This document shows, in pieces, positions 10,767 to 36,286 of a stretch of 36,286 nt of DNA (position 1 is its first letter; each line of letters opens with the position of its first letter). Position numbers and translations under genes: made by a program. Location: the IMG/VR virus record IMGVR_UViG_2778261315_000002; one strand, written 5' to 3'. Source of the DNA: a virus. Lineage: Duplodnaviria; Heunggongvirae; Uroviricota; Caudoviricetes. The notes beneath the pieces are model-generated. The model was not told the origin of the DNA. It did not search any database and saw only the letters and a list, made by a program, of their open reading frames with translations.

Positions 10767-10792
10767 TTTTCATAAACGTTGGTTTGGGAGAA
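10767..10792. repeat. Invertase crossover site, invertase-proximal (gix/hix-like, 26 bp)
   Basis: Reverse complement TTCTCCCAAACC-AA-CGTTTATGAAAA matches the site at 12453-12478 at 22 of 26 positions (first 14 identical) and fits the Hin-family site architecture of two imperfect inverted half-sites around a 2-bp core. Confidence 0.75.
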
Positions 10793-12199: not shown

Positions 12200-13514
12200 A
12201 AAAGCCGGTATTTGTTACCTGATCATCCACGATCATTGAAACGTGAACATTATTAGGTGTGCTCTCGTAATCCGTTCTTATTCTTTCTGCGATACTGATA
12301 AAACGTGAAAGTTTAGGCAGTGCAATTGGGTAAACGACTTTAGCCAGTCCATTATCATTAGATCCACCGGTTCCAAATACTTCTATTGCACCATCTGACC
12401 AGCGTACCCATGCACCATTGGCATTAGCTCCTCGCTGAATGACATATCTGGCTTCTCCCAAACCAAGGTATGTGAGAAGACCAGCTACATCCTTTCCACT
12501 CAAATTAGTCAGCGTATTGTCCAGCGGTTGTTTACCTGCCAGTGCATTAAGCATTGTCGTGGCAAAGTTCGGGTCATTCCCCAGTGCCGCCGCCAGTTCG
12601 TTCAGTGTATCCAGTGCCGCAGGTGCAGAACCCACCATTCCTGCAATCGCCGATTTCACAAAAGCCGTAGTGGCAATCTGTGTATTATTGACCGACTGCG
12701 CCGCCGTGGGGGCTGTTGGCGTTCCGGTGAGTGCCGGACTCGACAGCGGCGCTTTCAGTGCCAGCGCATTGTTAATGGTGGTACTGAATTTCGGATCATT
12801 GTTAATGGCTACGGCTATTTCTTTCAGCGTGTCCAGCGTGGCTGGCGCACCATTAATAAGAGCCGTCAGTGCCGCCTGAACAAATGCGGTGGTCGCAAGC
12901 TGCGTGGTATTATTCCCCGCCGCTGGCGTTGGCGCTTTGGGGGTTCCGGTAAACGTTGGACTTTCTTTGGGTGCATACTGTGAATGCGGGTCCGGCGCGG
13001 CAAGATGTTTTGCCATCAGGTCATCCACGTACACCTTCAGCTCCAGTGCCTTGTCATCCACATACTTGCGGGTTGCCAGCACTACAGCAGGGTCGATTTT
13101 CAGGGTGATATTGTCCGTGCTGCTGGTAATCAGCACCATGCGCACGGTCTGGGTACGCCCGCTGCCTTCAGCCAGTTGCGGCTTATAGCTTTCCGGGCAG
13201 TTGCCCACGGCAATCAATGCCCCGGACTCATCAAACAGGCCCACTTCACGTATCCACCAACCGCCCTCGTTTTCAGGGATCACCTGTTCGGCAATAATCT
13301 GGCTGCTGTTCTGCGGGTCGATATAGAGCATATTCAGCGCAGCCCGGCGTTTCTCATTTACCAATGCTGTCTGCTTTGCGTCCGGCGTTGGCAATGTTCC
13401 GCCGCCATCGCCGACCGCCATATGGGTAATTTTTAAAGGCACACCGAGCGCGGCGGCGCTGGCAAGTTTCGCCGCGCCAATATCCGTCAGCAGGGTATAA
13501 AATTTTGTGCTCAT
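12123..13514 (-). CDS. H: Tail fibre protein H (constant N-terminal part plus the currently expressed variable C-terminus)
   Basis: 463 aa; N-terminus MSTKFYTLLTDIGAAKLA...MAVGDGGG resembles P2 gpH; two tandem ~55-aa ATTAFV...LDTL.E.A.A...DP.F.TT..NALA.K.PL repeats; the C-terminus after LGLGE differs from the P2-like cassette. Confidence 0.85.
   Translation of the reverse strand: MSTKFYTLLTDIGAAKLASAAALGVPLKITHMAVGDGGGTLPTPDAKQTALVNEKRRAALNMLYIDPQNSSQIIAEQVIPENEGGWWIREVGLFDESGALIAVGNCPESYKPQLAEGSGRTQTVRMVLITSSTDNITLKIDPAVVLATRKYVDDKALELKVYVDDLMAKHLAAPDPHSQYAPKESPTFTGTPKAPTPAAGNNTTQLATTAFVQAALTALINGAPATLDTLKEIAVAINNDPKFSTTINNALALKAPLSSPALTGTPTAPTAAQSVNNTQIATTAFVKSAIAGMVGSAPAALDTLNELAAALGNDPNFATTMLNALAGKQPLDNTLTNLSGKDVAGLLTYLGLGEARYVIQRGANANGAWVRWSDGAIEVFGTGGSNDNGLAKVVYPIALPKLSRFISIAERIRTDYESTPNNVHVSMIVDDQVTNTGFYARCQMYDGRPSSNAFSWRVYCAPV
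12453..12478. repeat. Invertase crossover site inside tail-fibre gene H (gix/hix-like, 26 bp)
   Basis: TTCTCCCAAACC-AA-GGTATGTGAGAA; inverted partner of 10767-10792; lies in the H reading frame at ...LTYLGLGE|ARYV..., about 110 codons before the H stop. Confidence 0.75.
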
Positions 13515-15941: not shown

Positions 15942-15971
15942 CTAATCCTGCACGAAAATGCACAGGATTAG
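15942..15971. repeat. Perfect 9-bp inverted repeat (ctaatcctg ... caggattag) between the TIR-like cargo gene and V
   Basis: Read directly from the sequence just upstream of the V start; no T-run follows on either strand, so it is not a classical intrinsic terminator. Confidence 0.4.
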
Positions 15972-16005
15972 TTAGCAAGGAAGATTGTGTTAACTACTAA
16001 ACAAT

Positions 16006-16821
16006 TCAGAGAGATGCTGTTTTGTTGAAGTAATCCTTCAATAACTCCATCTTAAAGATGACCTGGAGTTTACAACCGGGAAATGAATCATTTACAGTTA
16101 CAGTCATCCCCAGGAACTCAGACTGAACCTTTATCAAATCATTAGGTATTTTGTGAAGAATATCTCTAACTTCTTTCTCTACCGTTGTGGGAACCAAGTC
16201 AAAACTAACAATAAACTCACTTGACGAATTATGCTGAACTTTAGACTTTATTTCCTTTAAAGCTTTTTTAGACAAGTTGAGAATATCAAAAACTTTCTCA
16301 AGATTATCAAATAAAACATACCTGCGTTCAAAATCAACAACCTTAGCTGCTAATTCATTAAAATCAGTTCTGAGCCGCCCCCTAGCACCCACAGCTGATT
16401 GCAAAGACCTAAATGCAAACTCCAATTTAGATGCCATATTGGCCTCAATTGCATTCAGATTACAAATAGGTTGAGGCAACTCTTTAAAAACCATGCCCGA
16501 ATGGCAGAAAGGAAGTGTAGGAATATCTCCCAAACCAGCATTCTGATTTAGGGTATTTCTTATCCAGACAGCCCCTAATTCAAAGCTAATCCAACTTCTT
16601 TTCACAGAATTAGGACTGATTAAATATATAGCCGCAATACAATTAACAAGGCCATCTTCTATTACTTTTAGGAAATTTTGCCCAGCCTTAATCGTTTCTC
16701 CATCTGAAGATACAAAAACGCTGACAAATCCAGCAAACTCATCTTCGATTGCATCTTTAATGATTTTTGCCAATTCTTTTTCTTCAGTAATATGAGATAA
16801 AAAAATCAACTTCTCAGACAT
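16006..16821 (-). CDS. Cargo protein with N-terminal TIR-like domain and uncharacterised ~160-aa C-terminal domain (candidate anti-phage defence gene)
   Basis: 271 aa from the ATG at 16821 (AGAGAG Shine-Dalgarno; the track ORF starts at a TTG at 16839). N-terminus KLIFLSH...VSVFVSSDGETIKAGQNFL...IAAIYLISPNSVKRSWISFELG fits the TIR pattern. Region is markedly AT-rich and interrupts the S-V junction, which is contiguous in P2. Confidence 0.55.
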   Translation of the reverse strand: MSEKLIFLSHITEEKELAKIIKDAIEDEFAGFVSVFVSSDGETIKAGQNFLKVIEDGLVNCIAAIYLISPNSVKRSWISFELGAVWIRNTLNQNAGLGDIPTLPFCHSGMVFKELPQPICNLNAIEANMASKLEFAFRSLQSAVGARGRLRTDFNELAAKVVDFERRYVLFDNLEKVFDILNLSKKALKEIKSKVQHNSSSEFIVSFDLVPTTVEKEVRDILHKIPNDLIKVQSEFLGMTVTVNDSFPGCKLQVIFKMELLKDYFNKTASL

Positions 16822-16937
16822 CACATACTCTCTAACCAATTGATAGATTTACAATTTAGCAAGAAAGAAAATGTGATACTAAGAAGAAGATCATAAAATC
16901 AGTATCTTCCCCAAAGAATCTTTCTCTAATCAGCACC

Positions 16938-17381
16938 TTAAGAAAACCATCTAATCAATATATCGCGAGTTAAATTTTCAACATCATCATTAACGCCCAA
17001 CAAACGCCGCTCTGCGTAACGCACCTCCGGTCCCTTACGACTGACGCGATCTCGCAGGCCGTAATGGTGAACGCGGGCAATGCGCTGCACCTTGCCTTCA
17101 AACTGCACGCTGGCAGAGTCGGCGCTGGCGGCAGTTTTCAGGTATTTTGTGGTGCGCAGCTTTGTAAACATCTGACGTTTGATACGGCCTTTTTTACTGC
17201 GTGCTGTTACCCGTCGCGGTTCATAGCTGCTGCCGTCAGGGTTGCGCTGCATCCTGATATTCTGCTGCTGTGTCCGGCGCAGTTCCTGCGCCAGCTGGCG
17301 CATCATGCGGCTTCTTGCGGCTGGTTCCAGATTCGCCAGCAAAGCACTCAGCCAGTCGTCCACCTTCTGCAGTTCAGCCAC
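16938..17381 (-). CDS. S: Tail completion protein S
   Basis: 147 aa; size and position match P2 gpS. Confidence 0.8.
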   Translation of the reverse strand: MAELQKVDDWLSALLANLEPAARSRMMRQLAQELRRTQQQNIRMQRNPDGSSYEPRRVTARSKKGRIKRQMFTKLRTTKYLKTAASADSASVQFEGKVQRIARVHHYGLRDRVSRKGPEVRYAERRLLGVNDDVENLTRDILIRWFS

Positions 17382-24651: not shown

Positions 24652-25676
24652 TGGGAAAGAGTAAAAAGAACCGCGCTGCGTCGACGAACCAGATCCAGCA
24701 TAAAAGCCAGACTTCAGCCGAAGCATTCAGCTTTGGTGATCCCATTCCTGTACTGGACCGCCGCGAACTGCTGGACTATGTGGAATGCGTACAGACGGAT
24801 CGCTGGTATGAGCCACCCGTAAGTTTTGACGGACTGGCGCGCACCTTCCGCGCTGCCGTGCATCACAGTTCCCCGATTGCAGTAAAGTGCAACATTCTGA
24901 CCAGTACCTATATCCCTCATCCGCTGCTCAGCCAACAGGCTTTTTCGCGTTTTGTGCAGGACTATCTGGTATTTGGTAACGCCTACCTGGAGAAACGCAC
25001 GAACCGATTCGGTGAAGTTATCGCCCTTGAGCCTGCGCTGGCAAAATACACCCGACGTGGGTTAGACCTGGATACCTACTGGTTTGTGCAATACGGTATG
25101 ACAACCCAGCCGTATCAGTTCACGAAAGGCAGCATTTTTCATCTGATGGAACCGGACATCAACCAGGAGATCTACGGCCTGCCAGGCTATCTTTCTGCCA
25201 TTCCATCCGCCCTGCTCAACGAGTCTGCCACGCTGTTCCGCCGTAAGTATTACATCAACGGCAGCCATGCAGGCTTCATCATGTACATGACCGACGCCGC
25301 GCAGAATCAGGAGGATGTGAACAATCTCCGCAACGCGATGAAAAGCGCCAAAGGTCCAGGCAACTTCCGCAACCTGTTTATGTACTCGCCTAATGGCAAA
25401 AAGGACGGCCTTCAGATCATCCCTTTGTCAGAAGTTGCGGCGAAGGATGAGTTTCTGAATATCAAAAATGTCAGCCGCGATGACATGATGGCAGCACATC
25501 GCGTTCCGCCACAGATGATGGGGATAATGCCTAATAATGTTGGGGGTTTTGGGGATGTGGAGAAGGCAGCAAATGTGTTTGTGCGAAATGAGTTATTACC
25601 CCTGCAAAAGCGTTGTTTAGAATTAAATGAATGGAGTAAAAAAGAACTCATACGGTTTGAGAGATACAGTTTATAA
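24651..25676 (+). CDS. Q: Portal protein Q
   Basis: 341 aa from the ATG at 24651, overlapping the P stop (TGATG); P2 gpQ size and position. The last ~25 codons lie in AT-rich sequence. Confidence 0.85.
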   Translation: MGKSKKNRAASTNQIQHKSQTSAEAFSFGDPIPVLDRRELLDYVECVQTDRWYEPPVSFDGLARTFRAAVHHSSPIAVKCNILTSTYIPHPLLSQQAFSRFVQDYLVFGNAYLEKRTNRFGEVIALEPALAKYTRRGLDLDTYWFVQYGMTTQPYQFTKGSIFHLMEPDINQEIYGLPGYLSAIPSALLNESATLFRRKYYINGSHAGFIMYMTDAAQNQEDVNNLRNAMKSAKGPGNFRNLFMYSPNGKKDGLQIIPLSEVAAKDEFLNIKNVSRDDMMAAHRVPPQMMGIMPNNVGGFGDVEKAANVFVRNELLPLQKRCLELNEWSKKELIRFERYSL

Positions 25677-25695
25677 AATCCAAAAAAACATAAAA

Positions 25696-25715
25696 ATGGC
25701 CGCTTAAACGGCCAT
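25696..25715 (-). terminator. Intrinsic terminator of the cargo operon
   Basis: Hairpin atggccg-cttaaa-cggccat; on the minus strand it is followed by TTTTTATGTTTTTTT, directly after the stop of the membrane-protein gene. Confidence 0.55.
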
Positions 25716-25720
25716 CCTTA

Positions 25721-26404
25721 TTAATTTGAAGAATCTTTTTTGAAGGTATCCAAATACCCTCTCAAATCAAAATCTTTATTACCCCTAAATTTTTCAACAT
25801 CTTTCTTGTCTGCATCTCTTTGTTCTCTAATCTTCTTGTTTAGTTTTTCAATCAAAGATTGTCTTTCGGCCTCTATTTCTTTTATTTTTTCAAAATGGAG
25901 TTTCGCCTTTCGTGCTTCTTCAGTCTTTACAATTATTTCATAACAAACACACAAAAGAAAACAAACCGTGGAAACGGTCATCCCTGCATCCACAACTATG
26001 AAGTAACCAATATCAACATTTTCTTTTATCTTATCTAAAGGCACAATCAAACATCCAAGAACCATAAAAAGCCCCACCACAAGATAAATAAAATTAATAG
26101 AGTTACGATAACTCAATTTAAAATATTCATCTTTTTGAGCTTCAAATAATTCCACCACATTACTTGGAGCCTTACTGTTTAACTCAATATCTTTAATCTT
26201 ATCCTGATAATCCACAAATCTTTTTACCAGCAAACCAATTAAAATAGCACCAATTAAAGATAATGCTTTAGATATAAGAGAACCAATTTCTAACAATATA
26301 CCAGTCTGATTGTAAATCCCATAAAAAACAGAAGCGAAAAGTCCCCCTATCAAGATAGATAAGCTCAACTGTATAATAAAACGCTCTATTCTTTTATTAA
26401 TCAT
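25721..26404 (-). CDS. Cargo operon gene 2: small integral membrane protein (4 predicted TM helices, Lys/Glu-rich coiled-coil tail); candidate defence or abortive-infection effector
   Basis: 227 aa from the ATG at 26404, which overlaps the upstream stop (ATGA); hydrophobic stretches FIIQLSLSILIGGLFASVFYGIY, ILLEIGSLISKALSLIGAILIGLLV, FIYLVVGLFMVLGCLIVPL, GYFIVVDAGMTVSTVCFLLCVCYEIIV; AT-rich. Confidence 0.5.
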   Translation of the reverse strand: MINKRIERFIIQLSLSILIGGLFASVFYGIYNQTGILLEIGSLISKALSLIGAILIGLLVKRFVDYQDKIKDIELNSKAPSNVVELFEAQKDEYFKLSYRNSINFIYLVVGLFMVLGCLIVPLDKIKENVDIGYFIVVDAGMTVSTVCFLLCVCYEIIVKTEEARKAKLHFEKIKEIEAERQSLIEKLNKKIREQRDADKKDVEKFRGNKDFDLRGYLDTFKKDSSN

Positions 26405-27396
26405 GGATTTATCACCCCAGCATCCAACAACCTTAACAACCATTCAACCATTTCATCACAAACACTATCAACAACTGGTAAACCCTTACTATATTCAATG
26501 CTAACATTGTCTTTTATTTGAATCTCATCATTTTTCAAAATCCCTGCACCTTTTAACTCAATAGTCAACATTTCATCCCTGTTATCAATTAGCCCCTCGG
26601 TTATCTTCCGAAGTAAATCTTGCTCATTATCACTGGCTCGATATTTATAACCAATAGAAATATCAATTGTAAGGTGTTCCTTTATTTCTGTATCAGGGGT
26701 ACTGTTTTTACGCAATTCTTCAACACGATGCTCACCAATTAAAGAACGCAATAACTCACTAGCAGCATCGTCAACGCCATTACCATTATATGTCAACGGC
26801 AGTTTTAAACTAACATTTTTAATGTTATTTCTTCTCAAGAATTCATTACTAATGCTTAAATTATTTGCCTGCAAAACAATAAAGTTTTCAACATCTACTC
26901 GTAGATTTTCCTTTAAAATAAAATTAATGTAATTTTCAATGTCTTTTATTCTTATTGCTCTACTTTGTAAAATCACGACATGATTCTTAACAACACCAAT
27001 ATAGGCAAAACTATCCAAATATTCTTTAACATCGCCACCCGCAATTCTGAAAGCCTCATATTCCAATTTCGGATTTTTATATTCCGTAACATCAAATACT
27101 GGAATACTTCCGCCAGGCTCTATGTACACAATTTCTGCAAAGAACATTCCGTTACGTTCAAATGAATTTGACATAACCATATGAGCATGCGTTGCCACAT
27201 CAGGATCAGAGTCCTTCGTTTCTAGAAAATGAACTCTATCTTGAACAGTACGAAACTTATGAGTCACAATCTCAGATAATCTGCTTTGTAAGTCTGATGT
27301 TAAAAGTGCATCTTTTTTAGGAAGCATAACTGCATGTCTGTAATGCAGTGCCTTGATTTTGGTATTGTTAGCAGCCATATAATTTCCAGTTTCCAT
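26401..27396 (-). CDS. Cargo operon gene 1: soluble protein of unknown function (candidate defence sensor or enzyme)
   Basis: 331-aa ORF (alternative ATG 6 codons in); no motif I can assign; AT-rich; translationally coupled to the downstream membrane protein. Confidence 0.5.
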   Translation of the reverse strand: METGNYMAANNTKIKALHYRHAVMLPKKDALLTSDLQSRLSEIVTHKFRTVQDRVHFLETKDSDPDVATHAHMVMSNSFERNGMFFAEIVYIEPGGSIPVFDVTEYKNPKLEYEAFRIAGGDVKEYLDSFAYIGVVKNHVVILQSRAIRIKDIENYINFILKENLRVDVENFIVLQANNLSISNEFLRRNNIKNVSLKLPLTYNGNGVDDAASELLRSLIGEHRVEELRKNSTPDTEIKEHLTIDISIGYKYRASDNEQDLLRKITEGLIDNRDEMLTIELKGAGILKNDEIQIKDNVSIEYSKGLPVVDSVCDEMVEWLLRLLDAGVINP

Positions 27397-27483
27397 TCTA
27401 TATTATGCTTTTTTACATAATACCTGCATAACTCAAAAGCATCTACGATCTTAATCGCACATACTAAAGCCTACCTACGCGCG

Positions 27484-27502
27484 CTCGTATCCCCGCCACG
27501 CC
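27484..27502 (-). other. Candidate cos (cohesive-end) sequence
   Basis: Minus strand reads GGCGTGGCGGGGATACGAG; first 13 nt match the P2/186 cohesive-end sequence as I recall it (GGCG[A/T]GGCGGGGAAAGCA[C/T]), 15 of 19 against the 186 form; lies in a 310-bp non-coding stretch. Confidence 0.35.
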
Positions 27503-27705
27503 TGCCCGCTTTATGTAGTGGTTTTCATGCACCTGCATGATCTACGCAAAAGCCCGCCAGTTCTGGCAGGCCTTAGCAAAAACGATCCTCAAACGATCAT
27601 GCGATCTCATGCGGCATAGACATGCTCCACAGAGCTAACGCCTCGCACAGCTCGTTGTTCAACCTTGCTGACGCCAGAAGCAAGTTCAGACGCCAGCAAC
27701 GTTTC

Positions 27706-27939
27706 TTAATGCAGCCAGCTGTCGTCTTCCCACACCTTCTGCATAATTTTCATCACTTGTTTTCTTTCTTCGTCCAGTTGCAGTCCGGTCAGTTCCACAC
27801 CGTTAGAGCTACCTTTGCGGATACGAATTACCGTTTTGGGATACAGGGGGCGCAGATTGCGGTAAAGCTCGGATTCAAGGGCGTCCAGTGTAGACTGGCT
27901 AACCTTCTGCTCTTTATCGATCATTATTTCAATGCGCAT
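27706..27939 (-). CDS. DinI-family protein
   Basis: 77 aa from the ATG at 27939 (GAGGTGA Shine-Dalgarno): MRIEIMIDKEQKVSQSTLDALESELYRNLRPLYP...WEDDSWLH, colinear with E. coli DinI from memory. Confidence 0.75.
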   Translation of the reverse strand: MRIEIMIDKEQKVSQSTLDALESELYRNLRPLYPKTVIRIRKGSSNGVELTGLQLDEERKQVMKIMQKVWEDDSWLH

Positions 27940-27949
27940 AAAAGTCACC

Positions 27950-28138
27950 TCAGCTGATGACATCCATTGAGCGGTTGTATTCGTGGGTTCTGATTTTTGC
28001 CATGAGTTCATCTGTCAGTTCAGAAACCCACTGCAGGGCCAGCCCCTTCTCTTCATCACTACACTCACTAGCCGCTACAAGCTTAAGAAAAAAATCAATG
28101 CGCTGGAGCTTCAAAGACTCCAAAAAATAGTCCTGCAT
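27950..28138 (-). CDS. Small SOS-regulated protein, first gene of the LexA-controlled operon (possible Tum-type antirepressor)
   Basis: 62 aa, ATG at 28138 with AGGAGG Shine-Dalgarno, 43 bp downstream of a consensus LexA box; function inferred from context only. Confidence 0.4.
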   Translation of the reverse strand: MQDYFLESLKLQRIDFFLKLVAASECSDEEKGLALQWVSELTDELMAKIRTHEYNRSMDVIS

Positions 28139-28180
28139 CTTTCCTCCTATGACACCAAAGCAATACTGTATACATGACCA

Positions 28181-28196
28181 CTGTTTATATTTACAG
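28181..28196. promoter_or_regulatory. LexA (SOS) box
   Basis: CTGTTTATATTTACAG fits the CTGT-N8-ACAG consensus exactly and overlaps the probable -10 region of the minus-strand promoter for the small gene plus dinI-like gene. Confidence 0.7.
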
Positions 28197-28290
28197 TATA
28201 TAATAATCTTACTGATGTAAAACGTTTTTTTATGCTCATCAGCCTGATATGCCTGGTATTATTAAGAGCACGAATTGTTAACCCGCTTAA

Positions 28291-30663
28291 TTAATACAGG
28301 TTTCGCCACTTATCATCTTCCTGCAAACGCTGGTTCCGATAGAAGATACGCAGGCCTGCTCCTGATGGAATACTGCCGCCGCGAAGCAGTAAATCGACCT
28401 CTTTCTCGCTGCCATCAATTCCCCTGGACTTCAGTTCATACACGAGCTGCTGTCGCTGATGATCTGTAATTCGCTGTTTGTAGTCTTTAAGCCGTTTCGG
28501 TTTCACAAGGCGTAACCTTGCTGCCAGTTCCCGGCGCTCTTTTTTGCTCATACTGTGCAGGTAATCGTGCAACTCCTTGTCATCCATGCGAGTGATATCC
28601 GTTCTGGTATCTCCATCAGCTGATTTGTCTTTCCCTTGTTGGTACAAATTTTCAGCAAGGGGACAGTTATTGCCACGAGTCCAAGGGGCGCAAGCGCCCT
28701 GGTCGGCTGCCGCCTCCTGAACGTCAACGGCTTTACGAACCATTTTCCACTTCACTGCATGAGTGCAGATCTTGCCCTCTGCAATGGGTGACCAGATGCC
28801 ATAAATACGAATACCGTGATCGCCATAGGCGGTCGGCTCTTCGTTGATTTCATAAGCGGTTCTGATGAGGTGATATTTACGGGGAACCAGTACGCCGCCC
28901 TGCTTCATGATGTAGGTGGCAAAGCAACCAGCATCAGCTGCAGCCAGAATGGCATCAAGGCGCGGGTTATCCAGTACCGGCGCACCTGCTTTTTTGTCAC
29001 CCTGTTGCCTTGCCGCCTGACCAGCCAGCAATCGCAGTTCACGGTAAGCCTGACGCCCCGGAATGCCAAAGAAGCGGAATTGCTGAACACGATGCAGAGA
29101 CGCCCAGGCATTAACGTATTCAGCGTTATCACGCAGAGATTTACCCGTTTCCTTGCTGATCTCGCCAGCCAGACCACGCCCGTCAATGTTCTTACTGATG
29201 TATTTCGCGATGTAGCTTGTTGGCGTACCTTTGCGCGGGTTAATCAACTCAGACTTAAAGCGCGGCCCAGTGTTATTGCCCAGTTCCTCGCGGTCTTCAC
29301 GGATGGCAAACTTACGCAGTAATGCAGTGATGGCGCGGCGGTCTTTTTTGCGCATAAAACACAACAGGTGCCAGTGAACTGTACCGTCATGATGCGGCTC
29401 AGCCACCCGCACGCCATACCACCGCAATCCGGCTTTGTGCATCGCCTTACGAAATGCAGCAAACATGCCGACCAGATAATCACTGCTTTGTCTTACCGTC
29501 GCATTTGTCCAAGTTGGGTTGGGCCTGCCATTATTTAGCGTGGAATGGAAACGTGACGGACAGGTGATGGTGTAGAAAACGGCGCAGTCACCGCGCATTT
29601 CCGCGATAAGCTCCAGGCCTTTAACACAGGCCATCATCTCATTGCGGCGATGCGCAGGGTTGCTGCTGCTGGCGTTTACCACATCCTCCATGTCCAGCGT
29701 GTCGCCGTCTTCGTTCACCAGTTCATGAGAACGAAAAAACTCCAGCGACTTACGGCGCTGCTCACGTTTATGCATCACGGCTTCATAGCTGACATAGGGA
29801 GATGCTTTTTTGCTGACCAGGCAGACAGCACGCAACTGCTCTTCCCGCCATTCGCAACGCATCTTCCATAATTTCCGGTACCACCAGTCAGCGCACAACA
29901 TACGCGCCAGCGAACCCGGAATGAGTTCATAGGGCACGGGTTTACGGCGGTTTCTTTTCCGGCGGAGTTGCTCAAACGCAGGCGGGATGACATCCAGACG
30001 CAGGGTTTCCGCTGCCACCTTTTCCCATGTCTTGCGGATTTCTTCTGGCTTAACGTCATCGGTGACATACAAATCGCCACAAGCTGCATCAAGGCACATG
30101 CTCATATGCGCAGCTACCAGGGTGGACAGGCGTTTCACCTGATCCTGACTCATTTCAGGCAGGATCAGCAGGCCGTCCAGCCCTTCATGGCTTGCCATAA
30201 AGCGAAAAGAAGTGGATAGCTGACAGTCGCGTACATGCTCCAGCCGTTCCAGACATGGCTTAATCGTCTCACGCAAATAGCGGGAATAAGCCTTTGGCCT
30301 GCCCAGGCTGCTGATGTATTCAATACGTTGCATCAGCGGCTTGCTGATATGGGAAGGCTGGGCATTGACGTCCGCCAGAATGACCATATCTGGATTAAAA
30401 CGCTGCTGCTCATGCGCCAGCTTTGCCCGACTAATGAGCTTATCCTGCTCCATTTCGCGCTGGACAGGATCACGGGATTCATTAAAGAAATAACGCTCCC
30501 AGACCTGATCACTCAGTGCCTCGCGGCGCAGCTGTTCCTGCTCGTTATCGGCAGCGTACAGAGCGATCAGGTTTGAAAGCGCAGAAACTGAAGATTGCTC
30601 TTCTGTCTCTACGTAAGGATTGATTGCTTTTTTCTCAGCATTCCAGGAATAGCTGTAGTTCAT
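28291..30663 (-). CDS. A: Replication initiation endonuclease A (rolling-circle initiator, HUH motif)
   Basis: About 790 aa from the ATG at 30663 (the track ORF extends to a TTG at 30714); HUH-like VHWHLLCF motif and downstream Tyr-containing region (YIAKYISK); P2 gpA position and similarity. Confidence 0.85.
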
Positions 30664-31493
30664 TACGCAATCTCCAGTTCGAGCTGTGAAGGCTGCAAAC
30701 CATTCGACAGCCAATCAGAAACTGAAGGTGGGCGAACAGCTTCAATTGCACCTTTTAAAATTGCGCAACGGTTTTTCAGAATGACAGCTTTCAGCTCCTT
30801 TTCCGTCAGATTGCGCGAATACTCAGCCTCCTGAATAGCCCGCGTCAGCTCAGGATATTTGCTATTAAATTTGGGGACATTGCAGGCAAGATTTGTACTG
30901 TCGGCAGTCGCCAGTGGGTAATTTCCCAACACACGACCGTCAAGCATGCGCAAACCATGAACAGCTGTTTTGAAATTGTGTCGGCAATAAATTGCTTCAA
31001 AAGCGTCCTGCATACGACGATGCCAGTGCGCAGTTCTGATAGCCGCATATTCACCAGACGATCCAAAGCAGACACGAGGCCATTCACGACATAGCTCGAT
31101 AAGCCGATCGATTGACTCGTGCAGATGCCAGACCGGAGTTGCCTTCCCGTAGAACATTTTCGGAACTTCGTTTATCAGGGCATCATTGTCACGTTCACCT
31201 CCGTCCACAACATCAGGAATGACAAAAAAAGCGACCTTAGGATGGTGGTAATAGTTCAGGAGCCATTTATAAAAATCACTCCAGTTAATTTTTAGCCCAC
31301 GCACCCATGCAGAAAATGCGCCGTTATCAATGCCGACGACCTGAGCGTGCTGAATGGACGCCGCAATCTGATCTGGTCGTACATAGGATACGAAAGCGCC
31401 AGCTCCGCTCACCGCAATACGATGAACGTCGCCAGCACTTCCCCAGACAGGCGTCCCATGGAAATGATGAATTCCGTGGTGCATTTCTTTCAC
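30663..31493 (-). CDS. Hypothetical protein between dam and A; possible TIM-barrel transglycosylase-like (TGT/DpdA-like) DNA-modification enzyme, speculative
   Basis: 276-aa ORF overlapping both neighbours (GTGA with the dam stop, TAATG with the A start). Motifs [17 protein letters not shown] and LATADST loosely parallel the three Asp-containing motifs of tRNA-guanine transglycosylases; this is a weak, by-eye resemblance only. Confidence 0.3.
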
Positions 31494-32344
31494 ACTTGCA
31501 CCCCGAAAATAACAGTAGAGTCACGTCCCCTACTAAAATCGGCACTAAACCAATTAGCAGATTTAGTGGCAATCATCTCTGTTGCAAATTTTCCCTCCCC
31601 CGCTGCAACGCCGATGCTGCGTTTCGCCCTGATGTAGTGGTGAGTGAAATTACGATAAAGGGACCGGGTCAAAGACGTGTTACTGTTAGAAACAATGACC
31701 GGATGTCCTTCTGATGACCGATGTTCAAGAATGGATGCCAGGTGATACTGATCATCTTCAGTGAAACCATCAGTGCGATAGCCGGAAAACGTACCGTCAT
31801 AAGGCGGATCGCAATACACCACATCCCCCACCTTCAACATCGCCAGCGTTTCATCAAAGCTGGCGCAGATAAACGTTGCCCGCTGGGCTTTCTCTGCAAA
31901 TGCGCGAATTTCTTTTTCAGGGAAATACGGATTTTTATAATTACCGTAGGGAATGTTGAAATGCCTGCTCTTGTTATAGCGACATAAACCACGGTAACCG
32001 TGACGATTGAGATACAGGAAATATACCGCTTTCATGAAATCAGTAATTTCAGTGGAGTAATTAAACTCCTGCCTTATGTTGTAATAAGCCACCTCCCTGT
32101 TTGCTTCCTCAAATAAAGCTCTGGCACGAGATATAAACGCCTCACAATCAGCAGCAACCTTTTTATAGAGGTTGATTAAATCAGGATTAATATCCGCAAC
32201 AAGATAGCTGGGATAATCCGTCTCCATCATCACTGCACAGGAACCCGCGAAAGGTTCAACCAGTCGCGGGCCAGCAGGAAGATGCTTTTTCAGTTCGGAC
32301 ATTATGGCGGTTTTATTTCCTGCCCATTTCAGGATGGTGCTCAT
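31490..32344 (-). CDS. dam: DNA N6-adenine methyltransferase (Dam family)
   Basis: 284 aa from the ATG at 32344 (GGAGGTG Shine-Dalgarno; ATGA overlap with the upstream stop): KWAGNK, FAGS and DPPY motifs. Confidence 0.85.
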
Positions 32345-32568
32345 ACAGCACCTCCGTTGTAATGTTTGCCTTTCAGCTCTGCGATTTCCTGACAGGTAAT
32401 GCAAAGCTGCACACCCGGAATGGCACGGCGGCGTGCTGGCGGAATTGGCGCTTCACACTCAACGCAAAGCACGCGGGACACGCCCGGCGTTTTGGCACGG
32501 GCAGCACGGATATGGCGTTGGCGTTCTTCTTCAACGCGCTGCTGTACGAGATCCATTGCATCAGCCAT
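32341..32568 (-). CDS. TraR/DksA-family C4 zinc-finger protein
   Basis: 75 aa with CVEC...CITC pattern. Confidence 0.65.
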   Translation of the reverse strand: MADAMDLVQQRVEEERQRHIRAARAKTPGVSRVLCVECEAPIPPARRRAIPGVQLCITCQEIAELKGKHYNGGAV

Positions 32569-32801
32569 CAGTGGATCTCCTGCGCTTCGTTCTGGATTGC
32601 TTCAGCAGTCACACGCAGCAGTTCTGCCGCTTCGACGTGGTTTAGCTGGCGGGAGGTGATATGACACGCCAGGCTATCGAGGCGAGCAGCCATTGCTTCA
32701 GCCCTTGCCCGGCGTTCTTCCAGACGAGCCTCTGTCAGTAAAAGATTAAGACCTGCATCATCCGGTCCGGTTTTGGTCGTGAGGGTTTCAATATTACGCA
32801 T
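32568..32801 (-). CDS. Hypothetical early-region protein
   Basis: 77 aa from the ATG at 32801 (AGGAGA Shine-Dalgarno); position of the small orfs upstream of P2 gene A. Confidence 0.4.
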   Translation of the reverse strand: MRNIETLTTKTGPDDAGLNLLLTEARLEERRARAEAMAARLDSLACHITSRQLNHVEAAELLRVTAEAIQNEAQEIH

Positions 32802-32868
32802 AAGCAATTCTCCTGAATTTAGATAAAGGGATGCCCGGCGGGTTTACGCCATTAATTTCATTAGTTGG

Positions 32869-33210
32869 TTAATTCGGCATGGTTAGCCGTCTGGGAAATA
32901 AGCTCACCACTGCACGAAAATGATTCATTGCTTTAATCAACTCCCGCTTTTCGTCAGTGGTCAGCTCATTAATGCTGATGCTATGACGTTCAGCTGGAAT
33001 TTTTGCCATAAAGAATATGGCAGCCAGTGCCCGTTTATTTTGTTCATTATTGATATCCCGAGGATCACGCATATCTTTAATAAACCGCTCAAGCTCTGAC
33101 TCAATATTCAAACCAAAAACTTTCGCCCTTAACTCCGCAATATGATTAAGTCCATTCAGGCGTTCACCGGGTCTTAATGGAACAGTCGCCGCAGCGCCTT
33201 CAATAGCCAT
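32869..33210 (-). CDS. Hypothetical early-region protein
   Basis: 113 aa, ATG with GGGGGA Shine-Dalgarno; position corresponds to 186 fil/dhr-type early genes; no motif assigned. Confidence 0.4.
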   Translation of the reverse strand: MAIEGAAATVPLRPGERLNGLNHIAELRAKVFGLNIESELERFIKDMRDPRDINNEQNKRALAAIFFMAKIPAERHSISINELTTDEKRELIKAMNHFRAVVSLFPRRLTMPN

Positions 33211-33374
33211 TTGTTCCCCCGTTTTTTCGTAGATAGTTCTGCCAGCAATTCATCTTGTGAACGGCACGGATGCCAGCGTTTACCATCCTCACCCATGATC
33301 CAGCCGTGACCGTAGTGCATTGCCGGACTTTGTTTTACCAGCAGCGATGCAAATGATGGTTCTTTCGTCAGCAT
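33174..33374 (-). CDS. Hypothetical small early protein
   Basis: 66 aa from the ATG at 33374 (GAGGTG Shine-Dalgarno), 8 nt after the cII stop; the track ORF starts at a GTG at 33404. Confidence 0.4.
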   Translation of the reverse strand: MLTKEPSFASLLVKQSPAMHYGHGWIMGEDGKRWHPCRSQDELLAELSTKKRGNKWLLKALRRLFH

Positions 33375-33381
33375 AAGCACC

Positions 33382-33891
33382 TCACAGCAAACCGAATGAA
33401 GCACCGAGGCCAGTCACGGTATCAACTGCACTCGCCATCGCAGGATTAGCCTGTAAACGGGCCTGCAATGAAACAGCAGCCAGCGCCATCAGTCGTGTAA
33501 CAGAGTTAATGCTGCTGATCGCATCACGACGGCCTGCACTGGTTTTTACATCGCCAGAAACCGCACCTGCCGCGACACGCCCTATCTCTGCAGTTGCACT
33601 CATGACGTAATGCGGCAGTTTCTCTTTTGCCACCTCATTAATCGGTACACATGGCAGGCAGTGAATCTGTGCCAGAAAGCCATCTACCAGCGTTGAATCT
33701 TCAGTCAGATCGGTAAGCAACCAGATTTCTGGTGCGGTTAATAAATGAGGTTGAGCTGGGTTCAGCTTGTTCCGCAGAATCTGCACATTCATGCCTGCAC
33801 GTTCTGCCAGTTGCACTAGGTTGTGGCGCAATGCGAATGCACGACAGGCTTCATCAAAATGTGGATGTTTGGAAACTTGGTAATCAAACAT
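33382..33891 (-). CDS. cII: CII-type transcriptional activator (phage 186 CII-like)
   Basis: 169 aa from the ATG at 33891 ([20 protein letters not shown]...); matches my recollection of the 186 CII N-terminus and length; the track ORF begins two codons upstream at a TTG. Confidence 0.7.
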
Positions 33892-33923
33892 GGTCAATGC
33901 CTCTGATGTATTTCAGAATCGAA

Positions 33924-34145
33924 CTAATTAAGGTTTAGATTGCATTCTGAAAGCGCATCAACGGTCATGGCTGCTATGTTGATCATCACTTTTTCACGTT
34001 TTTTATCTTTGCGCAGACGGTGACGGATAAGGCGTCCGTCAGCCAACATGTCATTGATGGTATCGATGGACAGCCCTGTCAGCTCGCTATAGCGTTCAAT
34101 AGTCACATGAGGCGTGGTAAGAGTGATTGAAATGTTAGGTCTCAT
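33924..34145 (-). CDS. Apl/Cox-type excisionase and early regulator
   Basis: 73-aa basic protein; first gene of the early operon, divergent from cI, in the position of 186 apl and P2 cox. Confidence 0.55.
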
Positions 34146-34264
34146 GATGCAACATTCCTCGTTTAATGATGATTAATCAGGACGAATACGGATCGTTTGT
34201 ATTTTGTGAACACCATAAACATACGATCGCACATTGAAATCGTCAAGATAAAAGTTCACTTGGA
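34146..34264. promoter_or_regulatory. Lysis-lysogeny switch region (early and repressor promoters, operators)
   Basis: 119-bp intergenic region between divergently oriented apl-like and cI-like genes. In 186 and P2 the two promoters here are face-to-face; operators not mapped. Confidence 0.5.
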
Positions 34265-34270
34265 GTGACC

Positions 34271-34840
34271 ATGAATTTGGAGAAAGGCGGACGAGGCGCT
34301 ATAGAGCGCATGGTAGAAGCTTATGGATTCAAAACTCGACAGGCGTTGTGCGATCATTTAGGAATCTCTAAAAGTACACTCGCCACACGCTACATGCGTG
34401 ACTCATTCCCAGCAGAATGGGTAATCCAGTGCGCCCTTGAAACGGGCACCTCGCTTAATTGGCTCACAACCGGACATGGTTCAAAGCAAACTTCAGGTAA
34501 TACAAATACTATGGAAGTTGCTAAATATGTATTATCTGATGGTGCCTTGCGTGAAGACGGTTTTTATATTTTTGATAAGGGATTTCTACCCTCTACGTTT
34601 AAAAAACCTTTTGTCATCACAGATAACAATTCTGAATTTATTTGTGATAAAGAATTTGATGATATACGTGACGGTAAATGGGTAATAAGTATTGATGGCG
34701 AAATAACAATCCGCGACATTACTCGTTTACCCGGTGGAAGAATCTTCGTTGAAGGTGGAAACAGAGCCTTCGAGTGCAAGATAGAAGATGTTGAAATAAT
34801 TGGGAAAATTATAAGTTTAACAATTAAGTACGTTAGGTAA
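34271..34840 (+). CDS. cI: Immunity repressor CI (186 CI-like; N-terminal HTH)
   Basis: 189 aa from the ATG at 34271 (GGAG Shine-Dalgarno; the track starts at a GTG at 34265); HTH QALCDHLGISKSTLATRYMR; AT-rich C-terminal domain; position between the switch and int. Confidence 0.7.
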   Translation: MNLEKGGRGAIERMVEAYGFKTRQALCDHLGISKSTLATRYMRDSFPAEWVIQCALETGTSLNWLTTGHGSKQTSGNTNTMEVAKYVLSDGALREDGFYIFDKGFLPSTFKKPFVITDNNSEFICDKEFDDIRDGKWVISIDGEITIRDITRLPGGRIFVEGGNRAFECKIEDVEIIGKIISLTIKYVR

Positions 34841-34855
34841 TACCGGGAGGAAACT

Positions 34856-35047
34856 ATGCTTGGTAAGGTATTTTTTGTGGTTTTATCATGCTCTTTGTTA
34901 TTAAACCCACTAACTACCTATGCTAAAAATTATCCTTGTTCTGGGAAAAAGGGAGGTGTCTCTCACTGTACCTCCGATGGAAAGTTCGTTTGCAATGATG
35001 GAACTATTAGTAAATCAAAAAAAATCTGTACTAAAAACTCGCGATAA
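34856..35047 (+). CDS. Small secreted Cys-rich peptide (signal peptide plus ~40-aa mature part with four Cys)
   Basis: 63-aa ORF with strong GGGAGG Shine-Dalgarno 6 nt upstream; hydrophobic leader [23 protein letters not shown]; AT-rich; inserted between cI and int. Confidence 0.5.
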
Positions 35048-35233
35048 ATTTTGCTTTTATATCTGCGCCTAATATAACAATGAGCCGCAGGCTAACCGCA
35101 AAAGTCACATACTCACATAGCAAAAAATAGCCAACTTCATTATGGCTTCAGTGAGATGTATGGTCGCAGGATTTCATACATTGACACTGGTTATACATAC
35201 AGTAAAAATGCTCTCTATTGGAGGGCATTTTTT

Positions 35234-36286
35234 ATGGCAGTACGAAAACTCACCACAGGAAAATGGCTTTGCGAATGTTACCCCGCCGGACGTAGTGGGC
35301 GTCGTGTGCGTAAACAATTCGCCACCAAAGGCGAAGCTCTGGCTTTTGAGCGCCATACGATGGAAGAAACCGAAGCAAAGCCCTGGCTGGGAGAATCAGT
35401 GGATCGTCGAACACTGAAAGACGTGGTTGAGCTATGGTTCAAACTACATGGTAAATCTCTAACCGCTGGGCAGCATGTCTATGATAAATTGCTGTTGATT
35501 GTTGACGCTCTGGGCAATCCCCTAGCAACCGATCTCACCTCTAAAATGTTTGCCCACTATCGAGATAAACGCCTGACAGGTGAGATCTACTTCAGCGAGA
35601 AATGGAAGAAAGGAGCAAGCCCGGTCACCATTAACCTGGAGCAAAGCTATCTAAGTAGTGTTTTTAGCGAACTATCCCGCCTGGGCGAATGGTCGTATCC
35701 GAACCCACTGGAGAACATGCGAAAATTCACCATCGCAGAAAAAGAGATGGCATGGCTTACCCATGAGCAGATTGTTGAATTGCTGGCTGATTGTAAACGT
35801 CAGGACCCGATTCTGGCACTGGTAGTTAAGATATGCTTAAGCACAGGCGCACGCTGGCGTGAAGCCGTAAATCTTACCCGCTCACAGGTGACCAAATACC
35901 GAATTACCTTTGTCAGAACGAAGGGGAAGAAAAACAGAAGCATCCCTATCAGTAAAGAGCTTTACGAAGAGATCATGGCGCTTGATGGGTTCAATTTCTT
36001 TACAGACTGCTATTTTCAATTTTTATCCGTGATGGAAAAAACGTCTATCGTGCTCCCTCGCGGTCAACTCACACACGTTCTGCGCCATACATTTGCGGCG
36101 CACTTCATGATGTCGGGTGGAAACATTCTCGCCTTACAAAAAATTCTCGGACACCACGATATAAAAATGACTATGCGTTACGCACATCTGGCACCAGATC
36201 ATCTGGAAACGGCGCTCCGTTTCAATCCTCTGGCAACGCTGCCAAGTGGCGACAAAGTGGCGGCAGCGGTTGGCATTACCCCGTAA
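35234..36286 (+). CDS. int: Tyrosine integrase (P2/186 family)
   Basis: 350 aa from the ATG at 35234 (GGAGGG Shine-Dalgarno); C-terminal catalytic region ...VLRHTFAAHFMMSGGNILALQKILGHHDIKMTMRYAHL; the stop is the last codon of the window. Confidence 0.85.
   Translation: MAVRKLTTGKWLCECYPAGRSGRRVRKQFATKGEALAFERHTMEETEAKPWLGESVDRRTLKDVVELWFKLHGKSLTAGQHVYDKLLLIVDALGNPLATDLTSKMFAHYRDKRLTGEIYFSEKWKKGASPVTINLEQSYLSSVFSELSRLGEWSYPNPLENMRKFTIAEKEMAWLTHEQIVELLADCKRQDPILALVVKICLSTGARWREAVNLTRSQVTKYRITFVRTKGKKNRSIPISKELYEEIMALDGFNFFTDCYFQFLSVMEKTSIVLPRGQLTHVLRHTFAAHFMMSGGNILALQKILGHHDIKMTMRYAHLAPDHLETALRFNPLATLPSGDKVAAAVGITP

Follow-up and report, generated by a model that had tools for sequence, protein, structure and literature searches.

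Genes and control elements of the switch region

The stretch of DNA analysed here, hereafter the window, comprises 36,286 nucleotides of a virus of the Caudoviricetes (IMG/VR record IMGVR_UViG_2778261315_000002). At one end it carries a lysogeny region in which fil, cII and an apl/cox-like gene, the last divergently transcribed relative to cI, stand opposite cI, a small cargo gene (moron) and int (Table 1). The cII product matches PF06892 in Pfam (3e-42) and PDB 6VLI (1e-65), with 69% identity to CII of phage 186. CI combines an N-terminal helix-turn-helix domain (PF07022, 2.7e-33) with a C-terminal oligomerisation domain (PF16452, 2e-28) and matches the 186 CI structure over its full length (2FJR, E 3e-31); in sequence it shares 32% identity with 186 CI, and no CI in the phage collection exceeds 54%. 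The Apl-like protein is recognised by PHROG 575, 'Cox-like excisionase and repressor' (6e-31), while a Pfam search gave no match and BLASTP alignments with 186 Apl and P2 Cox were marginal (for 186 Apl, E 1e-4 over 20 residues). The moron product belongs to PHROG 6000 (5e-34), of unknown function, and its position between cI and int is taken by other cargo in relatives. Int contains PF24624 and PF00589 (Pfam); its identity is 54-56% with 186 Int, 35% with P2 Int and 100% with the Int of phages 4LV2017 and 813R9.

Table 1. Position and nature of the features discussed; coordinates are those of the window
Feature	Coordinates	Strand	Description
ogr/B-type late-gene activator	2856-3074	-	at the other prophage end; PF04606 at 7e-22; shares 54-56% identity with 186 B and P2 Ogr
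SOS operon, split tum	27706-28198	-	LexA box, 62-aa ORF and DinI-like gene
DinI-like gene	27706-27939	-	77 aa; PF06183 at 7e-23
62-aa ORF	27950-28138	-	candidate antirepressor
Perfect LexA box	28180-28198	- (operon)	TACTGTAAATATAAACAGT; 0 mismatches; precedes 62-aa ORF and DinI-like gene
fil	33174-33374	-	186-type cell-division inhibitor, adjoins cII downstream; PF10893 at 2e-24; 81-82% identical to 186 Fil
cII	33382-33891	-	169 aa from ATG; lysogeny-establishment activator, 186 CII family
CII binding site (predicted), pE-type promoter	33865-33891	.	ATGTTTG-N13-CAAACAT, overlaps cII start codon
Tentative pE -10	33902-33907	+	TCTGAT, 10 nt downstream of CII site as in 186; from geometry only
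apl/cox-like	33924-34145	-	73 aa; excisionase and lytic-side repressor (by homology)
Switch region	34128-34270	.	contains 125-nt apl-cI spacer (34146-34270)
Putative pL	34128-34133, 34151-34156	+	TTGAAA, 17, CAACAT; placed by position against annotated 186 pL
Putative pR	34246-34241, 34223-34218	-	TTGACG, 17, TATGTT; from promoter scan
Candidate operator	34191-34228	.	palindrome; from sequence only
Candidate operator	34254-34270	.	GTTCAC-N5-GTGACC; from sequence only
cI	34271-34840	+	189 aa (191 aa from upstream GTG); immunity repressor, 186 CI family, GC 0.40
Moron	34856-35047	+	63-aa exported small protein (RefSeq 'YdcA family'); AT-rich, between cI and int
int promoter module (predicted)	35156-35232	+	repeat, -35, LexA box, -10, hairpin
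Perfect inverted repeat	35156-35181	+	ATGTATG-N12-CATACAT; CII-type, score 12/14
int -35 (predicted)	35181-35186	+	TTGACA; sigma-70-like promoter
LexA box	35185-35204	+	CACTGGTTATACATACAGTA; in promoter spacer; 4 mismatches to 20-nt consensus
int -10 (predicted)	35204-35209	+	AAAAAT
Hairpin	35204-35215 / 35221-35232	+	3' arm holds int Shine-Dalgarno; then T6; dG -17.5, z -5.1
int	35234-36286	+	350-aa tyrosine integrase; last codon of window is int stop

The phage 186 gene content that had been predicted for this immunity region is present, with a CI of 189 aa, an Apl-like gene and a CII of 169 aa. The agreement in gene size that had also been claimed holds for CI and CII, but only approximately for Apl, which has 73 aa here and 87 aa in 186. 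The CII site is a 14/14 match whose half-sites, spacing and position are those of the annotated 186 CII site; it is the sole exact one in the window and is kept in all aligned relatives. The hexamers of the putative pR and pL promoters lie where 186 predicts, so that the two promoters would face each other, and putative pL is invariant in six phages. A 186-like operator motif, GTTCAC-N5-GTGAAC, modelled on the FR and pB sites of 186, is not enriched in the window (17 matches against 14.3 expected), and the search gave a single good site. The only word common to the switch and the region upstream of ogr is TAAAAGTTC, a weak link from pR to the ogr upstream region.

The LexA-controlled DinI module that had been proposed as part of the control circuit was also found, with a LexA box free of mismatches and a PF06183 gene, and is located downstream of the replication gene, at 27.7-28.2 kb. 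The DinI-like protein shares 40% identity with the C-terminal half of 186 Tum; the 62-aa ORF gave no BLASTP alignment with 186 Tum and no Pfam match. Such a split tum, in which a small ORF precedes a DinI homologue, is known from Fels-2 and PSP3 (PMC3121763).

The working of the switch can be proposed by homology to phage 186, with promoters, operators and starts taken from consensus matches and position. In the lysogen, CI expressed from pL would repress the facing lytic promoter pR. After infection, pR would drive Apl, CII, Fil and the replication genes, and unstable CII, binding ATGTTTG-N13-CAAACAT at the cII start, would fire pE back through apl into cI, by which repression would be established. 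On DNA damage, LexA cleavage would de-repress the distant operon of the 62-aa ORF and the DinI-like gene; the 62-aa protein is expected to act as a CI antirepressor, as the split tum in PSP3 is reported to do, and Apl would then close pL and direct excision together with Int. Judged by its sequence, the phage departs from 186 in two respects, namely an immunity specificity of its own, as suggested by its distant CI (32%) and other operators, and an int gene that is not fused behind cI. A lysogenic operon in which int follows cI directly, a feature of 186 and not of the wider group, is absent here.

A predicted promoter module of the integrase gene

The cI stop (34840) and the int ATG (35234) are separated by 393 nt, which hold the 63-aa ORF and a separate promoter-like module. 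In this module, a predicted sigma-70-like promoter with a LexA box in its spacer is preceded by a CII-type repeat and followed by a hairpin that covers the int Shine-Dalgarno sequence. Relative to the CII site at pE, the repeat is set further upstream by one helical turn. Since the predicted promoter would start inside or after the 5' arm of the hairpin, the hairpin would form only in transcripts that read through from cI.

Comparison of int-homologue loci, which are mutually related so that locus counts are not independent events, showed a LexA box at -47 to -54 in 39 of 75, against 7 of 1973 control windows. The CII-type repeat accompanies the box at 36 of these 39 loci and occurs at 1 of the 36 without a box. 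Leader hairpins, for which each sequence was folded singly and compared with shuffles, have a mean MFE of -12.4 (z -4.3) at loci with the box and of -3.1 (z +0.3) at loci without it, and their stems are lineage-specific; since the stems cannot be aligned by sequence, RNAalifold predicted no structure when given the int leaders as a MAFFT alignment. The three-part module is conserved from Escherichia to Rahnella, Pantoea, Pectobacterium, Brenneria, Serratia and Yersinia, and box, repeat and hairpin are jointly missing from the compact int loci of the 186 type.

Other roles for the upstream repeat were considered. A CI or an Int site was rejected, as heteroimmune phages keep the repeat in step with CII and attP lies beyond the opposite end of the int gene.

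We tentatively propose, at somewhat less than an even chance, that in the lineage of this prophage int has become independent of the cI operon and been placed under three-part control by a CII repeat, a promoter with a LexA operator and a hairpin that sequesters the ribosome-binding site, so that Int would be made on infection or SOS induction and not through constitutive cI transcription in the lysogen. The three elements may instead be inherited sequence with no regulatory role. The LexA box departs from the 20-nt consensus at 4 positions, the repeat reaches a score of 12/14, with about 0.35 chance matches estimated in the window, the loci compared have common ancestry, and no publication on LexA control of a P2-family int was found. 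We nevertheless regard this explanation as unlikely, given that the positions of the elements are kept while the intervening sequence turns over, among Int alleles down to 54% identity and in roughly 20 genera. Moreover, the CTG/CAG arms and the half-sites are retained while the spacers vary, the stems differ by lineage yet always cover the Shine-Dalgarno sequence, and all three elements disappear together in the compact 186-type loci. Our literature search likewise found no description of CII, LexA and a leader hairpin acting at one phage int promoter.

The two predicted inputs to the int promoter, repression by LexA and activation by CII, also pose a question of timing in infection.

If functional, the int module would show how correct integrase timing is kept despite the cargo inserted between cI and int, and a phage integrase would join the LexA-controlled recombinases. 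The module is found in laboratory and clinical strains (the BL21(DE3) remnant, HS and APEC O78), in which SOS-inducing antibiotics could affect excision.

Lineage of the prophage and the extent of mosaicism

We consider, with a probability of about 0.88, that the whole window is a complete prophage of the P2 family (Peduoviridae), of the Fels-2/PhiECO1 lineage and with a 186-type switch and int, and that it is not a hybrid of P2 and 186. All expected genes from ogr to int are intact in the window. The integration site is the 3' end of the sRNA gene rybB, between rcdA and ybjL on the E. coli chromosome; our literature search on rybB as an integration site returned nothing relevant. The prophage at rcdA-ybjL of E. 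coli Combat2C1 is 99.7-99.9% identical to the window, and its tail-fibre segment is inverted relative to the window, which implies an active invertase. The immunity region was found in at least 530 of 5426 complete E. coli genomes (591 or 530, varying with the query chosen) at a cut-off of at least 80% query coverage; this type of prophage thus occurs in about one complete E. coli genome in ten. Known hosts of the element include E. coli HS, an APEC O78 strain and BL21(DE3), in which a deleted remnant has a truncated cII fused to a truncated replication gene. That remnant would fit a decaying, non-inducible cryptic prophage with a dead switch, yet for the element in the window we hold this to be quite improbable, as its gene set is intact, a nearly identical copy elsewhere has its tail-fibre segment flipped by what would be an active invertase, and near relatives have been deposited as phage genomes.

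According to the original prediction, a 186-type lysogeny module had been placed on a P2-type structural and lysis backbone. The first half of this stands: given CI, CII, Fil and a DinI operon under LexA control, the control logic is of the 186 type rather than that of P2, and no ORF of the window matches the P2 C repressor (P2 25591-25890, tblastn). These genes, whose homologues occur in 186 but not in P2, might suggest a recent recombinant in which a phage 186 lysogeny module was joined to structural and lysis genes of the P2 lineage, as might the somewhat greater closeness to 186 of CII (69%) and Fil (81%) than of most virion proteins (45-69%), and two ancient regulatory/late-region exchanges have been inferred in the family by Nilsson et al. 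(PMC3448106). The second half is not supported by a gene-by-gene tblastn comparison, in which the virion genes are not closer to P2 than to 186. Identity to P2 and 186, respectively, is 59/59% for the capsid, 63/63% for the large terminase, 69/67% for the sheath and 64/61% for the portal, with the virion proteins lying in the range of 45-69% to either phage, whereas P2 and 186 share 53-94% identity with each other and thus form a tighter pair than either does with the window phage. The structural genes are colinear with P2, as had been stated, but equally with 186, and for holin and endolysin tblastn gave no match to either P2 or 186. CI (32%) and Int (54%) are, moreover, distant from their 186 counterparts, and the whole combination is common to many phages of Klebsiella, Salmonella and E. 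coli at about 96% nucleotide identity. A recent recombination of this kind is therefore highly improbable.

It is important to note that a CI/CII switch with tum on a P2-like virion module is known in 186, PSP3, Fels-2 and SopEPhi (PMC2771037), and that the same architecture is present in the PhiECO1-3 prophages of the Fels-2 group (PMC3448106). Two switch types among P2-like phages, with a P2-type or a 186-type regulatory region, have been described (PMC2771037), so that observing a 186-type switch here changes nothing. This kind of prophage, together with its immunity class and the locus at which it integrates, was already catalogued in 2011 (PMC3448106), and the region is ordinary. The value of the analysis for annotation is that gene starts are fixed and that the CII site, the SOS operon with its split tum and the true mosaic breakpoints are located.

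The AT-richness of cI had been read as a sign of module exchange. As to composition the reading is correct, with a GC content of 0.398 in cI, 0.35 in the moron and 0.38 in the apl-cI spacer, against 0.541 in the structural block. As an exchange signal it is weak, since repressors of low GC occur in every relative checked (186 0.45, P2 C 0.46, 4LV2017 0.39, 813R9 0.40 and ST11-VIM1phi8.4 0.38, with capsid genes at 0.55-0.56). Genuine exchange is seen at a finer scale. Against Klebsiella phages about 96% identical to the window, nucleotide similarity is abruptly lost exactly over 34160-35175; CI is 47-54% and Apl 85% identical, as Apl is in heteroimmune relatives, while CII, Int and the 62-aa ORF are 99-100% identical. 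In this comparison only the cI-operator cassette and cargo islands have been replaced. Both the low GC and the sharp loss of similarity could point to a recent import of cI from a foreign, AT-rich donor, but we think this improbable, as low repressor GC runs throughout the family, 186 and P2 included. Furthermore, the incoming allele also encodes a CI of the 186 family, and its N-terminal domain shares 74-77% identity with those of the replaced alleles, which argues for exchange between related phages and not from outside. Sequence comparison thus indicates a mosaic only in the ordinary sense of the P2 family, in which immunity cassettes and cargo islands are swapped on a conserved backbone.

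Comparison with known systems

The closest known system is PhiECO1 of E. coli HS, which together with PhiECO2 and PhiSEN1 is placed in the Fels-2 group (PMC3448106). It occupies the same rcdA-ybjL site, is colinear over the genome and is 95.7% identical to the window over 31569-36245; its Apl, DinI-like and Ogr proteins have the same RefSeq accessions as those of the Combat2C1 prophage. It differs in cargo islands, namely, in window coordinates, the tail-fibre/invertase segment (10129-13050), a TIR gene (15942-16977), 25596-27707 and an extra gene of 276 aa (30589-31568). For the cargo genes, PADLOC gave no convincing defence-system assignment and weak TIR-like matches only. The immunity class of PhiECO1 has been characterised by an identity of more than 96% between CI proteins and of 98-100% over a cI-apl spacer of 125 nt (PMC3448106). 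The window has 124 of the 125 spacer positions in common with PhiECO1 (99.2%) and a CI that is 95% identical, just under 96%, with residues 1-93, the DNA-binding domain included, being 100% identical; immunity shared with PhiECO1 is therefore likely.

Klebsiella phage 4LV2017 (Elveevirus), E. coli phage vB_EcoM-813R9 and Kapieceevirus are about 96% identical in nucleotides over the backbone and have in common the layout apl-cII-fil-DUF5347-DUF2732-Zn finger-dam-A-orf-dinI. Where these phages have them, Int, CII and the 62-aa ORF show 99-100% identity (no int match was found in the ST11-VIM1phi8.4 record), and the int promoter including its LexA box is conserved in 4LV2017 and 813R9. They differ from the window phage in CI (47-54% identity), in their operators and in the cargo between cI and int, and the CI of 4LV2017 has 313 aa with a duplicated helix-turn-helix domain. 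In Salmonella phage RE-2010 (Felsduovirus), the early region (window 27708-33894) is 95-96% identical in nucleotides, while a different int (54%) abuts the repressor gene and the virion module is only 75-87% identical. Fels-2 and PSP3 have a tum split in the same way as in the window phage (PMC3121763).

Coliphage 186 (Eganvirus) has the same int-cI and apl-cII-fil gene set and order, an identical CII site, CI and CII of matching fold (2FJR, 6VLI), promoters that by position face each other, a DinI-related operon under LexA control that follows the replication gene, and an activator of the ogr/B type. With a CI only 32% identical and unlike operators, the window phage is predicted to be heteroimmune to 186. 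In addition, it is without dhr, its tum is split into two ORFs and its Apl is barely alignable. The 186 cI stop overlaps the int start, whereas in the window phage the moron and a separate int promoter lie between the two genes. The C/Cox switch of P2 resembles that of the window in its placement beside int and att, its Cox-like excisionase-repressor and the virion gene order that accompanies it. However, P2 lacks CII, Fil and tum and is not induced by SOS, and the window phage is without a homologue of C (about 99 aa in P2).

For the predicted int module, the nearest parallels are functional analogies only, with unrelated proteins and sequences: the CII-activated int promoter pI of lambda, in which the recombinase is tied to the establishment activator, and the LexA-repressed promoters of integron integrases, in which it is tied to the SOS response (PMC3108266).

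Prophage layout, attachment site and cargo

A single P2-family prophage makes up nearly all of the 36.3-kb window; ~2.8 kb of host DNA with ybjM, ybjL and the sRNA gene rybB precedes it at the left. The ORFs of the window, compared by tblastn with the phage 186 and P2 reference genomes, give a gene map colinear with both on the reverse strand. From the left, the map reads ogr, D, U, T, E, FII, FI, tail-fibre genes, I, J, W, V, S, R, lysis genes, X, L, M, N and O, followed by P and Q (both +), a cargo island, the DinI-like operon, replication gene A, dam, a zinc-finger gene, DUF2732, DUF5347, fil, cII and apl; beyond apl, the plus strand carries cI, a 63-aa ORF and int. Because rybB ends at the prophage boundary and the att core annotated in phage 4LV2017 overlaps its 3′ end, the prophage integrates into this sRNA gene, much as 186-type integrases target tRNA genes.

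Features of the prophage and its flank (window coordinates)
Feature	Coordinates	Strand	Details
rybB	2700-2778		Rfam RF00110, 105 bits
att core of 4LV2017, as mapped	~2765-2783
Block lost vs 4LV2017	10004-12452		tail-fibre tip, assembly genes, invertase
Invertase gene	10145-10756	-	Resolvase/HTH_7
Tail-fibre tip segment	10767-12466
Block lost vs 4LV2017	15942-16977		TIR-domain gene, P2 orf30 position
TIR-domain gene	16006-16839	-	277 aa, GC 0.36
Block lost vs 4LV2017	25647-27477		two AT-rich genes, P2 old/tin position
Two overlapping genes	25721-27396	-	331 and 240 aa, GC 0.33
DinI-family gene	27706-27939	-	77 aa
Candidate antirepressor ORF	27950-28138	-	62 aa
LexA box of SOS operon	28180-28198		TACTGTAAATATAAACAGT
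Block lost vs 4LV2017	30589-31568		additional 276-aa gene
Additional gene	30663-31493	-	276 aa
cII	33382-33891	-	169 aa
Predicted CII operator	33865-33891		ATGTTTG-N13-CAAACAT
Apl-like gene	33924-34145	-	73 aa
pL-like promoter	34128-34156	+	TTGAAA-17-CAACAT
cI-apl spacer	34146-34270		125 nt
Block lost vs 4LV2017	34160-35175		cI, its operators, 63-aa ORF
Candidate operator	34191-34228		38-bp palindrome over pR -10
pR-like promoter	34246-34218	-	TTGACG-17-TATGTT
Candidate operator	34254-34270		GTTCAC-N5-GTGACC
cI	34271-34840	+	189 aa
int control region	35156-35232		five elements
int	35234-36286	+	tyrosine integrase

E. coli Combat2C1 carries, between rcdA and ybjL, a prophage 99.7-99.9% identical to the window, except that the tail-fibre tip segment is inverted; an invertase gene adjoins this segment, and together they look like an active host-range switch of the Cin/Gin type. 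The AT-rich TIR-domain gene, flanked by the S and V homologues at the cargo position of P2 orf30, is a possible anti-phage defence gene (PF13676 at 5e-8; weak PADLOC ThsB-like and PDC-S66 matches). Two AT-rich genes at the old/tin hot spot of P2, with portal on one side and the SOS operon on the other, have no Pfam match and no convincing PADLOC assignment; relatives carry at this position a retron St85 effector with a polymerase gene, AIPR abortive-infection genes, or other cargo. The additional gene between A and dam, which has no Pfam match and is missing from all six phage genomes compared, matches PHROG 887 ‘queuine tRNA-ribosyltransferase’ at 2e-96 and may encode a DpdA-like enzyme for 7-deazaguanine DNA modification.

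The lysogeny switch and its kinship to 186 and P2

The original prediction saw in 33382-36286 a 186-type lysogeny control set on a P2-type structural backbone, and every one of its sequence-level statements is borne out. The CII homologue matches PF06892 at 3e-42 and the 186 CII structure 6VLI at 1e-65, with 69% identity to 186 CII. The CI-like repressor contains the two domains of 186 CI and matches 2FJR over its whole length, at an identity to 186 CI of only 32%. The Apl-like ORF has no Pfam match; it hits PHROG 575, ‘Cox-like excisionase and repressor’, at 6e-31, and its alignments to 186 Apl and P2 Cox are only marginal. The proposed LexA-controlled DinI module was also found, with a perfect LexA box ahead of the 62-aa ORF and the DinI-family gene, and cI is indeed AT-rich (GC 0.398 vs 0.541 in the virion block). 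The control logic was correctly named 186-type: except for dhr, which has no homologue in the window, homologues of all 186-specific control genes tested are present, and none occurs in P2. Outside the switch, 186 orf97 has no match in the window.

How the switch would work is inferred from phage 186 (PMC7708051 and the 186 genome annotation). The CII operator sequence is exact, and the predicted site overlaps the cII start as in 186, with a possible -10 ten nt downstream, again at the 186 distance. The pL-like promoter faces the pR-like one, spans the apl start codon like 186 pL, and is invariant in six aligned phages; from there to the start of cI, the sequence is exchanged from one immunity type to another. 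Of two candidate CI operators, the one abutting cI resembles the 186 sites ATTCAC-N5-GTGAAT; searches for CI operators confirmed neither.

A split tum has been reported for Fels-2 and PSP3, and in PSP3 the antirepressor activity is said to lie in the upstream gene (PMC3121763). The SOS operon here has this split form of tum, with the 62-aa ORF as its upstream gene and candidate antirepressor; no similarity was seen between this ORF and the 186 Tum N-terminal half. The ORF is 98-100% identical in phages whose CI proteins are just 41-54% identical, and, given that the N-terminal domain of CI is kept, one antirepressor may serve several immunity types by acting through the conserved DNA-binding domain.

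What does not hold is the ‘mosaic on P2 backbone’, a label that poses a false dichotomy. The virion proteins are equally far from P2 and 186 (P2/186 identity: capsid 59/59%, large terminase 63/63%, sheath 69/67%, portal 64/61%, D 56/55%). As those of P2 and 186 share 53-94% identity with each other, the phage falls outside the P2+186 pair, as an outgroup, and is no P2 derivative. The P2 order of the structural genes is non-discriminating because 186 has the same order. Uniform similarity to one reference, the outcome set against the mosaic, was found only in a loose sense: all modules have a 186 counterpart (32-82% identity) but the holin and the endolysin (a Phage_lysozyme family member), neither of which has a tblastn match in the 186 or P2 reference. 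The combination of 186-type control with a P2-like virion module is not unusual. For example, 186, PSP3, Fels-2 and SopEPhi have P2 gene order, tum, and CI/CII in place of C (Lavigne et al., PMC2771037). The comparison that the original prediction proposed was run by Nilsson et al., who described two regulatory-region types and found only two ancient regulatory/late-region exchanges (PMC3448106).

Immunity types among close relatives

Among phage records, Klebsiella and E. coli Peduoviridae come nearest: Elveevirus 4LV2017, vB_EcoM-813R9, Kapieceevirus phages and, in the early region, Felsduovirus RE-2010. Their identity to the window is ~96% over the backbone, and all have the layout apl-cII-fil-DUF5347-DUF2732-Zn finger-dam-A-orf-dinI. 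The Fels-2 group includes the prophages PhiECO1 (E. coli HS), PhiECO2, PhiECO3 and PhiSEN1, and Nilsson et al. defined an immunity class by CI >96% identical and a 125-nt cI-apl spacer (PMC3448106). The spacer in the window matches that of E. coli HS at 124 of 125 positions, CI is 95% identical (residues 1-93 identical), and 31569-36245 is colinear with the HS prophage at 95.7%, at the identical chromosomal site. With at least 80% of the query covered, two different queries found the immunity region in 591 and 530 of the 5426 complete E. coli genomes. The element is a very common, previously described E. coli prophage type, so the finding as first stated is of low interest. E. coli BL21(DE3) has a deleted remnant of the same element (875585-879625), in which apl, cI, the ydcA-like ORF and int are intact at 96.8% identity, and a truncated cII is joined to a truncated replication gene.

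Similarity to 4LV2017 is lost only in discrete blocks. Against close relatives, CI is 47-54% and Apl 85% identical, amid CII, Int and the 62-aa ORF at 99-100% where present: an immunity-cassette swap among near kin. The suggested module exchange stands in this form; the AT-richness of cI is no sign of it, because repressor genes are low in GC relative to capsid genes family-wide (186, 0.45 vs 0.55; P2 C, 0.46 vs 0.55; three near relatives, 0.38-0.40 vs 0.55-0.56). In CI itself, the DNA-binding N-terminal domain shares 74-77% identity with those of 813R9 and 4LV2017, and the C-terminal domain only 36-41%. A prophage of E. coli C51 has a CI 88% identical to that of the window, yet a wholly different cI-apl spacer and a different apl, which suggests recombination inside cI or rapid operator turnover.

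A predicted control region of int

Five elements of a putative promoter module lie directly upstream of int. A perfect inverted repeat, ATGTATG-N12-CATACAT, matches the CII half-sites at 12 of 14 positions and is directly abutted by a -35, TTGACA. The 17-nt promoter spacer contains a LexA box, CACTGGTTATACATACAGTA (16/20 to consensus, CTG/CAG arms both intact), and the -10 is AAAAAT. A leader hairpin (dG -17.5 kcal/mol, z -5.1) holds the int Shine-Dalgarno in its 3′ arm, followed by T6 and the ATG. The LexA box is retained in 813R9 despite diverged flanks.

By Int homology, 77 loci were collected from species-representative genomes, and 75 were scored. Of these phylogenetically related loci, drawn from many enterobacterial genera, 39 have a LexA box, scored as CTG-N10-CAG with 13/20 or better and located -47 to -54 relative to the int ATG, vs 7 of 1973 control windows from the same loci. 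Loci with the box include Int alleles of 54-57% identity from Rahnella, Pantoea, Pectobacterium, Brenneria and Mixta. In 36/39 cases the box is accompanied by a CII-type repeat that begins between -92 and -70, vs 1/36 for box-less loci (background 0.006 per interval). Leaders of 34 distinct box-type loci fold with a mean MFE of -12.4 kcal/mol (z -4.3), whereas 27 box-less ones give -3.1 (z +0.3); the stems differ in sequence by lineage and in general take in the Shine-Dalgarno.

Transcription from the int promoter would start ~7 nt past the -10, inside or beyond the 5′ arm of the hairpin, and we therefore infer that only cI read-through transcripts carry it. In these the ribosome-binding site would be occluded, with termination where a T-run follows; transcripts from int's own promoter would be translatable. 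No description of this promoter-like module was found in the searchable literature, and it may be the one new feature at 33382-36286. In 186, by contrast, the cI stop and the int start overlap; here, 393 nt lie between the two genes. Most box-less loci are of the compact 186 type, with a pE site ~1055 nt upstream of int, no gap, and none of the repeat, LexA box and hairpin.
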